From assembly GCA_964642155.1 (NCBI GenBank), contig CAZXNT010000002.1, positions 1,801 through 65,800 on the forward strand: a DNA stretch of 64,000 nt. The letters are read 5' to 3'. The notes beneath the pieces are model-generated. The model saw only the letters and a list, made by a program, of their open reading frames with translations, searched no databases and was not told where the DNA came from. Both the position numbers and the translations under genes were made by a program. This document shows positions 44,290 through 61,235 of the stretch, piece by piece (the first letter of the stretch is position 1; each line of letters opens with the position of its first letter). The stretch is from an uncultured Candidatus Saccharibacteria bacterium. GTDB taxonomy: Bacteria > Patescibacteriota > Minisyncoccia > UBA6257 > UBA9933.

Positions 44290-44429
44290 TCCCTCACCCT
44301 TCAAAGATTAAATATTATTAAACTTTGATAATGAGGGAATAAATTAAATTTTGTTAAAATAAATATAATTCAAAGAATCAATATTTTTCATTTTTTTAAA
44401 TGAAAAATAAAATCTTTGAAGGGTGAGGG
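44290..44429. repeat. TIR-flanked intergenic element, copy 1 (between rpsM and rpsK)
   Basis: Begins tccctcacccttcaaagat immediately after TAA, and ends atctttgaagggtgaggg immediately before ATG. Confidence 0.9.
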
Positions 44430-44894
44430 ATGGGACAAAAAAAAGTTATAGAAAAAACTGAAAAAGATATTTTAGAAGAAGGCAAGAAATTGGAAGAAAC
44501 GATGGCAAAAAAATCTTCCGTTAAAAAAAGCGGACAAGTGGTTGGGAAAATAGGCGTTGGCGTGATTTACGTAAATTTCAGCTATAATAATACCATGCTT
44601 ACGGCAACCGATAAAAAAGGCAATGTGGTTGCGTGGATTTCCGCCGGCTCTTTGGGTTTTTCGGGGCCTAAAAAAGCCACGCCATTCGCGGCTTCAAAAA
44701 TGGTGGCAGCTGTGTCCGAAAAATTAAAAAAAATCGGTTTTTCCGAAATTGAAGTGGTGATGAAAGGAGTTGGTAGTGCTAGAGATTCCGCCCTGAAATC
44801 TTTAGCAGGTCAAGGATTTAGTATTTTATCAATAAAAGACGTGACGCCAATTCCGCATAATGGTCCGCGTCCGCCGAAAAAAAGAAGAGTATAA
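44430..44894 (+). CDS. rpsK: 30S ribosomal protein S11, with an N-terminal KE-rich extension
   Basis: NNTMLTATDKKGNVVAWISAGSLGF... Confidence 0.9.
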   Translation: MGQKKVIEKTEKDILEEGKKLEETMAKKSSVKKSGQVVGKIGVGVIYVNFSYNNTMLTATDKKGNVVAWISAGSLGFSGPKKATPFAASKMVAAVSEKLKKIGFSEIEVVMKGVGSARDSALKSLAGQGFSILSIKDVTPIPHNGPRPPKKRRV

Positions 44895-44901
44895 TTTTAT
44901 A

Positions 44902-45522
44902 ATGTTAAGAGCCAAAGAAAAAAAAGAACGCGCATTGGGAGTTAAGCTTGGTTTAAAAGCCGAGCGTTGTGATTCGCCGAAATGCGCGATGATAAGACGC
45001 CCTTATAAGCCGGGCGTACACGGTAAGAGCCGTCGTCGCAAATCTGCCTCGGAATACAGCCAACAGCTTCTTGAAAAGCAGAAAATGAAGATAATCTACG
45101 GTTTGAAAGAATCACAATTGAAAAAAATCGTGAAAGAAATAATGAAAAAGGGATTACCGAGTCAGAGAATAATTGTTCTTTTGGAACGCCGTCTTGATAA
45201 TGTAACTTTTAGGACTAGATTGGCGGCATCAAGAATAATTGCCAGACAATTGGTAAGCCACGGTCATATTTTTGTCAATAATAAAAAAGTAACCATTCCT
45301 TCATATTTGGTGAAAGCGGGCGATGTTGTATCAATAAATCCATTGTCCAAGAATCTATTGATTTTTAAAGATTTACAGAATATCATTAAAAAACATGACG
45401 CGCCGGAATGGTTTCAAGTTGACGGCGATAAAGTGGAAGCGAAAATAAAATCATTGCCAGCAAGAATTTCAGAAGAATTATTATTTGATCTAAACTTGGT
45501 CGTGGATTATTACAGCAGATAA
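44902..45522 (+). CDS. rpsD: 30S ribosomal protein S4
   Basis: CDSPKCAMIRRPYKPGVHG zinc-finger-like N-terminus and an S4 domain. ATG at 44902, after the rpsK stop. Confidence 0.9.
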   Translation: MLRAKEKKERALGVKLGLKAERCDSPKCAMIRRPYKPGVHGKSRRRKSASEYSQQLLEKQKMKIIYGLKESQLKKIVKEIMKKGLPSQRIIVLLERRLDNVTFRTRLAASRIIARQLVSHGHIFVNNKKVTIPSYLVKAGDVVSINPLSKNLLIFKDLQNIIKKHDAPEWFQVDGDKVEAKIKSLPARISEELLFDLNLVVDYYSR

Positions 45523-45526
45523 AAAT

Positions 45527-46312
45527 ATGCAATATCAATACCTTAGTGAAACAGTAAAAATTAAAAAAGTTTCGGAAACCGACATTGAGGGGGTTTTTGA
45601 AGTTGAAGGGCTTTATGCCGGTTATGGCCTTACTTTGGGCAATGCCTTGCGAAGAGCGCTTTTGTCTTCTTTACCCGGCGCCGCCATTACCCAGATAAAA
45701 ATTAAAGGCGTAAAACATGAATTTTCAACCATAGCGGGCGTAAAAGAGGATATTGTGGAAATTATTTTAAATCTTAAAAAAATTCGCTTTAAGCTTTATT
45801 CCGATGAACCGCAGGTTCTTTCTTTAAAAGCGAAAGGAGAGAAAAAAATTTTAGCCAAAGATATTGAAGTCAATTCTGAAATTGAAATCGTTAATCTTTC
45901 CGCTCATATTCTTTCATTAACCGGAAAAAATGCCGAAATTGAAATGGAATTAACCGTTGAAAAAGGATTGGGATATATGGCGGCAGAGAATAGAAAAGCC
46001 GATAAATTGCCAGTGGGCGTGATTGCCATTGATTCATTTTTCAGTCCGGTTATTGGCGTGAATTTTGTTGTTGAAAACATGCGCGTTGGAGAAAGAACGG
46101 ATTATAACAGATTAAGGATTTTTATTAAGACGGACGGAAGCATAACGCCGTCAAAAGCGCTTCATAAATCCGCGAATATTTTGAAAGACCATATTGAAAA
46201 AGTGGCGTTGATTGAAGTGAAAGAGATTGAACTAGAGAAAACTTCATCTGCCGGGAAAAAAGGGAAAAAAGCGGTTAAGGAAAAAGAAGAAAAAAAGAAA
46301 AAAAAGAAATAA
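45527..46312 (+). CDS. rpoA: DNA-directed RNA polymerase alpha subunit: N-terminal domain only, no alpha-CTD
   Basis: The alpha-NTD is conserved (..GYGLTLGNALRRALLSS..). The protein ends after a Lys-rich tail at 261 aa, and rplQ starts 1 nt later, so no CTD is encoded here. Confidence 0.85.
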   Translation: MQYQYLSETVKIKKVSETDIEGVFEVEGLYAGYGLTLGNALRRALLSSLPGAAITQIKIKGVKHEFSTIAGVKEDIVEIILNLKKIRFKLYSDEPQVLSLKAKGEKKILAKDIEVNSEIEIVNLSAHILSLTGKNAEIEMELTVEKGLGYMAAENRKADKLPVGVIAIDSFFSPVIGVNFVVENMRVGERTDYNRLRIFIKTDGSITPSKALHKSANILKDHIEKVALIEVKEIELEKTSSAGKKGKKAVKEKEEKKKKKK

Positions 46313-46662
46313 TGAAGCATCTTAAAAAAGGAAGAAAATTTCATAGAGCAAAGGGCCAGCGCCGGGCTCTTTTAAAAAGTTTAATCGCTAATTTAATCAT
46401 TAAAGAAAAAATTGAAACCACGGAAGCGAAAGCCAAAGAGATTAAATCGGCAACGGAAAAATTAGTCACGCTTGCTAAAAAACAAAACGTGGCATCTTTA
46501 AGGATTATTTTATCAAGATTAACCAATAAAGCGGGGCAAAAATTATATTATCAAATTGCGCCGCGATATATTGAAAGAAAGGGGGGATATTTGAGAATAA
46601 TTAAATTGGCGAAAGTCAGGAAGAATGACGCCGCCAAGATGGCGATAATTGAGTTTGTATAA
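46312..46662 (+). CDS. rplQ: 50S ribosomal protein L17
   Basis: MKHLKKGRKFHRAKGQRRALLKSL... Confidence 0.9.
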   Translation: MKHLKKGRKFHRAKGQRRALLKSLIANLIIKEKIETTEAKAKEIKSATEKLVTLAKKQNVASLRIILSRLTNKAGQKLYYQIAPRYIERKGGYLRIIKLAKVRKNDAAKMAIIEFV

Positions 46663-59946: not shown

Positions 59947-60132
59947 ATGGCTAAAACATCAGTAATCGCAAGAGCAAAAAAGAAACCGAAATTTTCAACA
60001 CGAAGCGTACGTCGCTGTTTTAAATGCGGTAGGAAAAGAGGATATATCAGGGATTTTGGATTATGTAGAATTTGTTTCAGAGAAATGGCGAGCAGGGGAG
60101 AAATACCAGGAGTAAAGAAGGCATCATGGTAA
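59947..60132 (+). CDS. rpsN: 30S ribosomal protein S14 type Z (zinc-binding)
   Basis: 61 aa with CFKCGR...CRICFRE. Confidence 0.92.
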
Positions 60133-60144
60133 AAATTATTTGAA

Positions 60145-60525
60145 ATGTATATAAATTTATTAACACAACTTAAAAATGCTCAGGCGGTAAAGAAAGAAAA
60201 TGTAAAAATTCCTTATTCAAAAATGGATGAAGGCGTTTTAAAAGTTTTAGCTTCTAATAATTATATAGAGAATTTTGAAAAGAAAGGGCAAAAAATCAAG
60301 CGTTATTTTGACGTTAAATTGAAATATGTTGAGAATAAGGGAGCGATTAATGGAATAAAATTAATTAGCAAGTCGTCTCGCCGTATTTATGTCGGCTTTG
60401 AAAAAATCAGGCTCGTGAAACATGGTTATGGATTAATAGTGATTTCAACTTCAAAAGGAATTATGGGCGGTCAAGAAGCCAGAAAAGCGAAAATGGGCGG
60501 ATTAGCGTTATTTGAAATATGGTAA
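60145..60525 (+). CDS. rpsH: 30S ribosomal protein S8
   Basis: Position and S8 pattern (..LTQLKNAQ..). Confidence 0.9.
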   Translation: MYINLLTQLKNAQAVKKENVKIPYSKMDEGVLKVLASNNYIENFEKKGQKIKRYFDVKLKYVENKGAINGIKLISKSSRRIYVGFEKIRLVKHGYGLIVISTSKGIMGGQEARKAKMGGLALFEIW

Positions 60526-60534
60526 TCTAAAATT

Positions 60535-61095
60535 ATGAGTAAAATAGGAAAAAGACCAATAATTATACCCGAAGATGTTGACGTTAAAATTAACGGCGAT
60601 GTTTTTAATTTTAAAGGAAAAAACGGAGAATCTTCATTAAAAATTATGTTCGGCGTTAAAGTTGATATAGATAATCAGCTAGTTGGCGGGAAAAAAATTA
60701 TGGTGTCTCTTTTGGACGAATCTCGGCAATCAAAGGCCAATTGGGGAACTATGAGGGCGTTAATGAATAATGCTATAATCGGAGTGAAAGAAGGATTTGA
60801 AAAAATATTGGAGATTGAAGGAGTTGGTTATCGCACTTCAATGGATGGCAATAATTTATTACTGAATCTTGGATTCTCTCATCCGGTGAAAGTGGAGCCC
60901 CGAGAAGGGATAAAAATAGCGGTTGAAAAAAATACCATTAAAATTTCAGGAATTGATAAATTTTTAGTCGGTCAAACGGCGGCTGAGATAAGAGCCCTTA
61001 AAAAACCCGAACCGTATAAGGGCAAGGGGATTAGATATCAAGGGGAGATAATCAGGAGAAAGGAAGGCAAGAAAGCAGCTGGAGCAACAAAATAA
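60535..61095 (+). CDS. rplF: 50S ribosomal protein L6
   Basis: MSKIGKRPIIIPEDVDVKI.. Confidence 0.9.
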   Translation: MSKIGKRPIIIPEDVDVKINGDVFNFKGKNGESSLKIMFGVKVDIDNQLVGGKKIMVSLLDESRQSKANWGTMRALMNNAIIGVKEGFEKILEIEGVGYRTSMDGNNLLLNLGFSHPVKVEPREGIKIAVEKNTIKISGIDKFLVGQTAAEIRALKKPEPYKGKGIRYQGEIIRRKEGKKAAGATK

Positions 61096-61235
61096 TCCCT
61101 CACCCTTCAAAGATAATGAAGAGTTTGGGAAATAAAATATTTTTATGTTATATATAAAATAAATTAATTTAATCTTCACAAGATTTATCTTGTAAATTTT
61201 ATAAAAATTTACAAGCAATCTTTGAAGGGTGAGGG
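61096..61235. repeat. TIR-flanked intergenic element, copy 4 (between rplF and rplR)
   Basis: Same arms; a near-duplicate of copy 2. Confidence 0.9.

Follow-up and report, generated by a model that had tools for sequence, protein, structure and literature searches.

Inverted-repeat inserts abutting start codons in the ribosomal-protein operons of a Patescibacteria genome: probable miniature members of a GIY-YIG nuclease/hairpin cassette family

Four inserts in the ribosomal-protein operons

We analysed a stretch of 64,000 nt (hereafter the window) from contig CAZXNT010000002.1 (positions 1,801 to 65,800, forward strand) of assembly GCA_964642155.1, filed as an uncultured Candidatus Saccharibacteria bacterium, in which four short elements bounded by inverted repeats lie between ribosomal-protein genes. 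The organism appears to be Wolfebacteria-like, its L2 protein being 79% identical to that of named Wolfebacteria. The elements had been pointed out in an earlier model-made reading of the letters (the sequence-only reading), and all four were found where that reading placed them, between a TAA and an ATG (Table 1); by NCBIfam profiles the flanking genes were identified as those for S13/S11, L23/L2, L2/S19 and L6/L18. The 19-mer arm TCCCTCACCCTTCAAAGAT occurs eight times in the window, with 0 mismatches and once per arm, against 0.04 occurrences expected from shuffles. The arms had been described as exact complements of 18-19 nt. Their complementarity is indeed exact, and pairing extends by one more base to a 20-bp helix (ATCCCTCACCCTTCAAAGAT / ATCTTTGAAGGGTGAGGGAT), to which TAA contributes its last A and ATG its T as the additional pair. 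The accompanying statement that all other junctions measure 0-30 nt needs a minor correction, since five are longer, at 34-104 nt (rplN/rplX 34, rpsE/rplO 45, rplO/secY 42, infA/rpmJ 82 and rplQ/tuf 104). Unoccupied junctions in the window have AT-rich spacers of 0-12 nt.

RNA fold predictions for the four inserts gave -50 to -71 kcal/mol, with z scores of -9 to -11 against dinucleotide shuffles. The interiors are AT-rich and stop-laden, and their reading frame differs among the copies. Interior subtype B comprises the 55203 and 61096 copies, which are 96% identical to each other, and subtype A comprises the 44290 copy and the right half of the 56170 copy. The nested mini-hairpin of the 56170 copy is terminator-like on the minus strand only. 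Rfam screening of the whole window detected one tRNA only; the inserts reached no family's gathering threshold, and below threshold they gave only generic hairpin and miRNA-precursor matches. An internal promoter was considered and rejected, the sole match being weak (9 of 12 positions, 44385-44413), with no convincing sigma-70-type promoter. A small peptide encoded by the interior was also rejected, because changes in loop length shift the frame while the hairpin is kept, and because subtype B carries in-frame stops. In a subtype from Jorgensenbacteria an open reading frame (ORF) does end at the right-arm TGA; its stem changes are compensated and its loop length is variable, so that a conserved peptide is ruled out there too.

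The genome is poor in Shine-Dalgarno (SD) sequences. A duplex with the anti-SD of -6 kcal/mol or stronger was predicted at only 8 of the 67 starts in the window, four of them being the right arms of the inserts. The right arm reaches -7.8 kcal/mol and contributes the AT of the ATG. Starts normally lie in unstructured, A/U-rich RNA, and a 20-bp helix covering the AUG should therefore prevent free initiation. When the UAA occupies the A site, the ribosome must already have unwound about the first 11 nt of the left arm, as follows from what is established on its mRNA channel and helicase. The earlier proposal that the paired arms bring stop and start together is supported in silico by folding, in which the arms also sequester the SD-like stretch and the AUG: the unpaired probability of these bases was 0.05-0.07 in the free RNA and 0.40-0.66 with the UAA and 11 nt held open. 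The perfect 20-bp duplex would also be long enough to serve as a substrate of RNase III.

Table 1. Positions of the inserts, their substructures, the compared junctions and related cassettes (window coordinates unless a locus is named)
Feature	Position	Strand	Remarks
rpsM/rpsK insert	44290-44429	+	no ORF; subtype A interior; TAA 44287-44289, ATG 44430
Arms of the 44290 copy	44290-44308 and 44412-44430		helix reaches 44289/44431
3' interior hairpin, 44290 copy	44382-44409	+	12-bp stem, UUUU loop, 2 nt 5' of right arm
rplW/rplB insert	55203-55344	+	no ORF; subtype B; rplW stop 55200-55202, rplB start 55345
3' interior hairpin CTTGTAAATTTT/AAAATTTACAAG, 55203 copy	55298-55324	+	2 nt 5' of right arm
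rplB/rpsS insert	56170-56335	+	no ORF; rplB stop 56167-56169, rpsS start 56336; nested mini-hairpin inside
Nested mini-element CCCCTCACCCTTTAAA-ATT-AAAGGGTGAGGGG, 56170 copy	56204-56236	+	perfect; arm-like halves, short loop
3' interior hairpin, 56170 copy	56292-56312	+	
rplF/rplR insert	61096-61235	+	no ORF; subtype B; rplF stop 61093-61095, rplR start 61236
3' interior hairpin, 61096 copy	61189-61215	+	
rplW/rplB junction			window filled; CAYOSD01 / Ga0210016 (L037/L183) TAAAAATATG; H52-bin056 unrelated 69-nt spacer
rplP/rpmC junction	58282-58293	+	window empty, TAATTTTTTATG; CAYOSD01 / Ga0210016 filled; H52-bin056 filled
rplP/rpmC, filled copies	L183 4726-4874; L037 5015-5162; L040 6666-6805		
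rpsS/rplV junction			window not filled; CAYOSD01 / Ga0210016 filled; H52-bin056 not filled
rpoA/rplQ TAATG stop/start overlap	46310-46314	+	unoccupied in window
Second-family ORF-bearing cassette	28341-28697	+	arms ACCCTGTTAAATA 28341-28353, TATTTAACAGGGT 28616-28628
89-aa GIY-YIG ORF of that cassette	28373-28642	+	
Second-family ORF-less copy	39786-39965	+	arms 39796-39826, 39866-39896; tail GCTCAAT...CATTGGC

Distribution and turnover of the arm family

An exact scan with the 18-nt arm core gave 61 stretches in species-representative genomes and at least 120 in metagenome contigs. The counts below refer to 120 unique paired copies pooled from both scans, that is, the copies among the matches listed. 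The sequence-only reading had suspected a dispersed family resembling miniature inverted-repeat transposable elements (MITEs), and the search of other genomes bore this out with more than 100 distinct copies. True arm matches were nearly all from metagenome-assembled genomes of Patescibacteria, namely Jorgensen-, Wolfe-, Lipton-, Brenner- and Harrisonbacteria, Paceibacterota or mislabelled 'Saccharibacteria', and the arms are identical across lineages whose ribosomal proteins share only 50-65% identity. Contig sets of 0.6-0.8 Mb contain roughly 10-20 copies per genome, and the 805-kb chromosome OY970216.1 apparently a single one; contig ends frequently fall inside the elements. A literature search on these arms, or on such MITEs in the candidate phyla radiation (CPR)/Patescibacteria, found nothing relevant.

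Position relative to genes was remarkably uniform at the 3' side. The right arm directly abuts an ATG in 115 of the 120 copies, and in 112 of these 115 an ORF of at least 40 codons follows. On the left flank TAAT was found in 74 copies (about 62%), and in 68 copies a gene-sized ORF (40 codons or more) ends 1-2 nt 5' of the left arm. About 40 copies lie at a start codon without an adjoining upstream gene, for instance 3' of a tRNA or of a promoter-like stretch, and still abut the ATG, indicating that abutment of the right arm on the start codon is the near-universal rule and stop adjacency is secondary. Of the exact stop-to-start placement claimed at the outset, only the start half is thus near-universal. 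Specific colonisation of ribosomal operons was not upheld either, since a ribosomal-protein or secY gene lies downstream of only 23 of the 107 copies outside the window. Insertions at a neutral intergenic AT without a following G are nearly absent (5/120).

Similar interiors were always found in the same orientation with respect to the downstream gene (510 same-orientation pairs); of 34 interior pairs matching only in opposite orientation, 25 were inspected, and all of these fell within the palindromic 3' hairpin. Of 98 unique copies, 76 have a hairpin of at least 6 bp that ends within 5 nt of the right arm (2-5 nt 5' of it), where 21.8 would be expected. Its stem is 6-18 bp long and its sequences are unrelated among subtypes. 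In many subtypes a TTAACTTCAAT/TTCAAAGA motif stands 5' of the hairpin; it partly repeats the left arm and is complementary to the right-arm TTGAAG. A strand-specific DNA mechanism, effects of antisense or termination, or a function in RNA could each underlie the strict orientation.

No transposase or insertion sequence (IS) bounded by the arms was detected in the roughly 180 loci scanned (loci, not whole genomes), where all non-chance arms belong to units of 65-292 nt. Unpaired arms were considered as ends of transposase-bearing copies and rejected, as they are contig ends or chance matches in unrelated organisms; a lone viral match (L182) was also discarded, being the same unrelated sequence as two TARA contigs. 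Of 112 copies, 100 have the CCCTC...GAGGG core flanked by AT at both ends. Since AT..AT flanks are palindromic, they are possibly an extension of the terminal inverted repeats (TIRs) and thus uninformative on duplication. Direct repeats of 3-7 nt of the TGAR type (TGAR/ATGA stop-start overlap) were counted in 11 cases, against about 5 expected.

Orthologous junctions were compared with those of CAYOSD01 and Ga0210016 (loci L037 and L183; L2 95% identical to the window), H52-bin056 (ribosomal proteins 87-99% identical) and Ga0438308 (L189; L2 85% identical). The sequence-only reading had proposed to compare relatives for empty sites, and both filled and empty alleles were found (Table 1). L189 carries no copy of the window arm family at any junction. 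The rpsM/rpsK junction is filled in five genomes, distant ones included, and empty in others; its interiors are about 62% alike, that is, unrelated, between genomes with more than 94% protein identity, and copies at different junctions within a genome are 95-96% identical. This junction-wise switch of subtype, together with the likeness within genomes, indicates recent copying or gene conversion rather than a vertically inherited regulatory sequence. The turnover of copies and interiors is fast. In L037/L183 a mini-element flanked by AT..AT was found, and a mini-hairpin lies at rpsS/rplV of L183. Most intercistronic spacers longer than 60 nt in L183 were read by eye as long stop-to-start inverted repeats, either MITE-like or made of complementary heptamer arrays, which suggests that stop-to-start hairpin geometry is what selection permits in these operons.

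The nuclease-bearing form and its bearing on the inserts

Units of about 290 nt, of which the outer arms (CCCTCACCCTT.../...AAGGGTGAGGG) are shared with the inserts, enclose a single GIY-YIG ORF. The first two, detected with 3-mismatch arms, lie at L163 5691-5980 and L147 7049-7340 and encode 85-88 aa; PF01541 (E ~1e-15, 55-59 bits) is the only substantial Pfam domain, and one nuclease ORF also matches T5orf172 weakly (22.5 bits). The arrangement of ORF between outer arms, abutting a host ATG, was observed in L163, L147, L193, L194, L197 and L199. The unit begins with (A)AT, followed by CCCTCACCCTT with 4-7 variable nt, then 2-9 nt and the ATG of the ORF. The right arm encodes the end of the ORF, reading ...ML-TAA-GGGTGAGGG or ...(Q/E/K)G-TGA-GGG with the host ATG next, and the nuclease stop accordingly lies inside the right arm, UGA 3 nt or UAA 9 nt before the host ATG. 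Host genes after the four units found through homologues are nusB, type IV secretion genes and a patatin-neighbour gene. ORF-bearing and ORF-less copies occur together on Ga0265296_1000103 (L163, L180), on the Hain-H41 contig (L147) and on JASEIC010000001.1 (L199, L034). Two further arm families also occur with and without a GIY-YIG ORF, one being ACCCYG.../...CRGGGT with a GCTCAAT...ATTGGC tail and the other starting CCCCCACATAACTTG.... The family is multicopy, directional, polymorphic between close relatives and physically linked to a nuclease gene. It is common among groundwater bacteria with tiny genomes and widespread in Paceibacteria-type Patescibacteria, and it targets, or survives only at, start codons.

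A protein database search gave 345 homologues, almost all of 84-88 aa and almost all from Patescibacteria. The C-terminus is ML, QG, EG or KG, as the right arm dictates, in 63 of the 120 homologues listed, and mis-called N-terminal extensions read NPSPFKH, which is the translated left arm. The proteins consist of the catalytic domain alone (85-87 aa). In the alignment the catalytic-type residues are invariant, and Tyr, Gly, Arg, His and Glu and an RE..LK motif show no variation; the same columns are conserved in SsnA. BLASTP against gonococcal SsnA, for which the ssnA locus with NTS repeats on both sides was taken from L200 (NZ_CP119142.1), gave 53.5 bits and 33% identity over 72 aa. (L200 is a 2.17-Mb Neisseria gonorrhoeae chromosome filed as a plasmid, and its ssnA is apparently frameshifted near the start.) The nearest solved structures are those of UPF0213 proteins 1ZG2 (29 bits) and 1YWL (22 bits), a family of unknown function; SsnA itself scores only 15.6 bits against 1ZG2. 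SsnA is the closest characterised relative of the nuclease.

The Ssn nucleases and their NTS/SRM repeats were described by Chenal et al. (2025, Nat Commun; PMC11893778), whose main text makes no mention of Patescibacteria. SsnA is a single-domain GIY-YIG enzyme of about 94 aa that binds the NTS/SRM hairpin in single-stranded DNA (ssDNA) and cuts beside it, ignoring double-stranded DNA, RNA and the opposite strand; ssnA is typically flanked by its genome-dispersed repeat, a layout likened by the authors to an insertion sequence (PMC11893778). The family described here shares with this system a single-domain GIY-YIG protein of about 85-94 aa, directional repeats, a gene bracketed by hairpin repeats that are also dispersed without the ORF, and many co-varying nuclease/repeat pairs. 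It differs in that the gene, or about 100 nt of AT-rich filler, lies in the loop of one long hairpin, that copies are set against start codons with single-nucleotide precision, overlapping stop and start, that the right arm is SD-like, that copies number tens per genome rather than the hundreds of Neisseria, and that the hosts are Patescibacteria. Self-contained mini-hairpins of the Ssn type do exist (the nested element of the 56170 copy and L183 rpsS/rplV); most copies have 60-130 nt or a gene in the loop. The translation-integrated architecture is new, and the family would otherwise be a variant of the recently described Ssn nuclease/hairpin system.

These observations altogether point to the four inserts as, probably, ORF-less miniature members of an Ssn-like GIY-YIG nuclease/hairpin cassette family that translation tolerates at start codons. 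The nuclease would act on the hairpin in ssDNA and so drive or maintain the spread of both forms, with the short ORF-less copies riding on it in trans. In the polycistronic mRNA the 20-bp arm helix would mask the start site and set stop and start side by side; a ribosome arriving at the UAA would melt the left arm (about 11 nt, paired with the right-arm GGGUGAGGGAU), thereby freeing the SD-like GGGUGAGGG and the AUG. Downstream translation would stay coupled to upstream translation, which would make an insertion tolerable even between ribosomal-protein genes. The stop of the nuclease ORF in the right arm would likewise relay the ribosome to the host AUG in ORF-bearing units. A more far-reaching version, which we put forward only tentatively and hold to be doubtful, is that two arms and an 85-aa hairpin-specific GIY-YIG nuclease make up an autonomous mobile element of about 290 bp, start-codon-precise and translationally transparent. 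Such an element would rely on the host operon for transcription and on coupling to the upstream gene for translation of its nuclease, and it would pass the ribosome to the downstream gene by way of the stop codon and SD mimic contained in the right arm. On this view the 140-nt copies between ribosomal-protein genes would have descended from it as non-autonomous forms.

Several observations weigh against the Ssn-like interpretation. ORF-bearing copies and the window do not have the same inner 7 nt in their arms (AAGCAT and AAAGAT, respectively), and neither the window nor its two closest relatives yielded an ORF-bearing copy with the window arms. The Ssn gene is flanked by two hairpins of 20-50 nt, each self-contained, and the nuclease here could equally be cargo that targets pre-existing hairpins. 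Filled alleles never keep the 4-29-nt spacer of empty alleles, so that the event looks like replacement rather than simple insertion; a fixed target-site duplication was not established under three boundary definitions. In about one-third of the copies no upstream gene terminates at the left arm, and coupling cannot therefore explain the use of the masked start there. The anti-SD was taken as generic, a 16S 3' end having been sought in all loci and none found. Finally, we infer both the nuclease-repeat interaction and the coupling from sequence.

Three other explanations were weighed. In one, the inserts are a host-beneficial cis-acting RNA module, serving coupling, RNase III processing or mRNA stabilisation, which spreads by gene conversion and carries the nuclease as secondary cargo. 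The strict orientation towards the downstream gene, the exact abutment on ATG in 115 of 120 copies, the 3' hairpin kept in structure despite unrelated sequences, the identical arms across lineages of divergent ribosomal proteins, a native spacer that is replaced and not added to, and the other long L183 spacers, by eye likewise stop-to-start inverted repeats, would all suit such a module. Occupancy is patchy, however, even at more than 90% protein identity (L189, with L2 at 85%, has none), the interior subtype switches at one junction between near-identical genomes, and unoccupied junctions work with their short AT-rich spacers. Moreover, three unrelated arm families each go with the same nuclease family, for which co-evolving pairs are a better fit than cargo. 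We regard the RNA module as unlikely. A classical MITE, mobilised in trans by a DDE-type transposase into AT targets with a 2-bp duplication, selection leaving only those insertions that recreate stop and start, is the least probable of the three. Its perfect TIRs of 19-20 nt, small size and many copies, its filled and empty sites, the AT flanks on both sides of the core, the AT..AT flanks of the nested mini-element in L037/L183 and the frequent contig breaks inside elements are what such an element would give. Against these stand the lack of any arm-bounded IS or transposase among the scanned loci, with non-chance arms confined to short units, and the single orientation observed where symmetric TIRs and a palindromic target predict both. 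Neutral AT sites without a following G are almost unused, the spacer expected after simple insertion is missing from filled alleles, and the length of direct repeats is variable. Of the selfish-MITE reading made from sequence, dispersal and polymorphism stand; strict directionality and the absence of a transposase partner among the scanned loci, with a GIY-YIG ORF in its place, do not agree with it. As an initial description, 'MITE-like element bridging stop and start' is fair.

The third explanation is a domesticated, DNA-level genome maintenance of the kind proposed for Neisseria NTS/SsnA, in which hairpins would mark ssDNA for the nuclease, for example to limit or shape how incoming DNA recombines near essential genes, and the start-codon position would simply be where hairpins are tolerated. 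The reliance on DNA uptake generally assumed for Patescibacteria would suit it. The SsnA homology and the repeat-gene-repeat layout agree with it, and the Neisseria repeats cluster near particular genes, are directional and modulate transformation (PMC11893778). Taken as a whole this explanation is less likely than the RNA module and ranks above the classical MITE: it leaves unexplained both the single-nucleotide precision at ATG and TAA and the SD-like content of three different right arms, and the few copies per genome (roughly 10-20, apparently one in OY970216.1) contrast with hundreds in Neisseria.

The claim that no equivalent had been described is too strong, as the Ssn/NTS repeats (PMC11893778), Neisseria REP2 and Correia elements are partial equivalents. 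REP2 and the Borrelia IR are repeats lying directly 5' of ORFs with internal stem-loops (PMC3184786). REP2 supplies a ribosome-binding site and ATG, as the right arm does here; it has a promoter and no TIRs, whereas the present elements lie mostly in operons and have long TIRs and no convincing promoter. Among REP/REPIN-RAYT systems a dispersed palindrome is likewise paired with one dedicated, repeat-flanked nuclease gene and a strand-specific hairpin logic; RAYTs, however, are HUH Y1 enzymes (IS200/IS605-like) in place of GIY-YIG, and REPs lie downstream of genes without start overlap. Correia/NEMIS elements, which are Neisseria MITEs, show TA duplication, IHF sites, promoters, both orientations and experimentally demonstrated RNase III cleavage. 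In common with these and with ERIC/IRU, the inserts are about 100-160 nt long, have long TIRs that pair in co-transcribed mRNA, and show filled and empty sites (partly PMC3184786). Their arms are unlike the 26-nt Correia consensus, and their flanks are TAA-T / A-TG instead of TA..TA; Correia elements are not locked to start codons, have no nuclease-bearing form and share no sequence similarity with the inserts. Free-standing GIY-YIG homing endonucleases such as phage T4 Seg are also genes between conserved genes and polymorphic among relatives (PMC2988022), and Seg-like repair-mediated copying would explain the replaced native spacers. Seg and I-TevI, however, are proteins of 200-250 aa with separate DNA-binding domains and one long target (PMC2988022), in contrast to the catalytic domain alone of 85-87 aa here, and they have neither flanking TIRs nor ORF-less multicopy derivatives.

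Ssn-type nucleases were described only in 2025, and the family adds a second and very different context, namely the reduced genomes of Patescibacteria with the gene inside the hairpin. Its architecture is unusually legible, a DNA repeat being tied to translation signals at single-nucleotide resolution, and it hints at how selfish DNA can persist, without disrupting them, in those operons of a minimal genome that are under the strongest constraint. The 20-bp stop-to-start clamp may offer a compact natural part for enforcing translational coupling, and the co-varying arm/nuclease pairs a ready source of new ssDNA-cutting specificities. For annotation, the family accounts for odd gaps of 100-300 nt, mis-called N-terminal extensions and contig breaks in CPR ribosomal-protein marker regions, which are widely used for phylogeny and binning. 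Were the autonomous-element proposal true, no smaller self-mobilising DNA element would be known from cells, nor any earlier one of which the ends double as translation signals.

Other arm families and repeats in the window and its relatives

The ORF-bearing cassette of the second family (Table 1) ends with its GCTCAATGTTG...CAACATTGGC tail exactly at ATG 28698 of a PfkB-family kinase gene, and the ORF-less copy ends exactly at the true fpg start, ATG 39966, as identified by an unambiguous MPELPEVE. Near-identical copies of this family in relatives lie at rpsK/rpsD, rpmC/rpsQ and rpsQ/rplN (L189). The rpoA/rplQ junction, unoccupied in the window (46310-46320), holds a third family (CCCCCACACC...; CCCCCACACCAAAC.../...GGTGTGGGGG) in the close relative L005 (about 4262-4425), with a clear duplication of TGAA and conversion of the rplQ start to GTG. 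The CCCCCACACCAAAC.../...GGTGTGGGGG family was also found at rpsS/rplV of L189, again ending at a GTG start. In L121/L179 (about 1340-1440, minus strand) the order reads TAA ATGAAT, a mini-hairpin, ATGAAT, a GIY-YIG cassette with the fourth arm family CCCCCACATAACTTG, and ATGAAA...; the repeated ATGAA suggests successive insertions at one start codon, each duplicating it.

Arrays of heptamers, such as (AGAAAGT)n followed by the approximate complement (TTCTAGA)n, form intercistronic spacers of 70-100 nt, which by eye are stop-to-start inverted repeats without a shared arm sequence. They were found at infA/rpmJ of the window (43671-43752), where the heptamer repeats are complementary to repeats elsewhere, and in L183 at rplB/rpsS, rplE/rpsN, rpsH/rplF, rpsE/rplO and secY/adk. 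Runs of N in L037 (CAYOSD010000004.1) at 2826-2925, about 1510-1590 and 7058-7155 mask intergenic or repeat stretches; L183, the unmasked twin, reveals in these places a heptamer-array hairpin spacer and, within rplW, a region of tandem repeats.

Motifs of the AAGTTTAAAAGTTT type were observed at rpsS/rplV (56624-56670), rpsC/rplP (57842-57888) and rplN/rplX (59073-59119), and may represent a lineage-specific non-SD translation-initiation or spacer motif. The perfect palindrome TTACATTTCAACTGCTATCGCAGTTGAAATGTAA occurs in two copies of 95% identity (28175-28217 and 40270-40310), of which one follows the end of a gene and one lies within or close to the fpg region. A unit of 87 nt, present at 19013-19099 and 25693-25779, consists of a consensus TTGACT-N17-TATAAT promoter and a leader hairpin, and a 60-nt repeat, AAAGTTCGAACATCATTCAAAAAACACCGCC, is found three times (3869-3928, 5845-5904 and 8423-8482). 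The gene order of the window is unusual, with the alpha operon (rpsM to rplQ) and tuf upstream of rpsJ. Between rpsJ (48052-48381) and rplC (53556) lies an island (48468-52602) encoding a 947-aa Eco57I/MmeI-like restriction-modification fusion, a 328-aa HipA-like kinase and a 103-aa ORF; at the same site L189 carries a DUF3850 gene and a 150-aa ORF.

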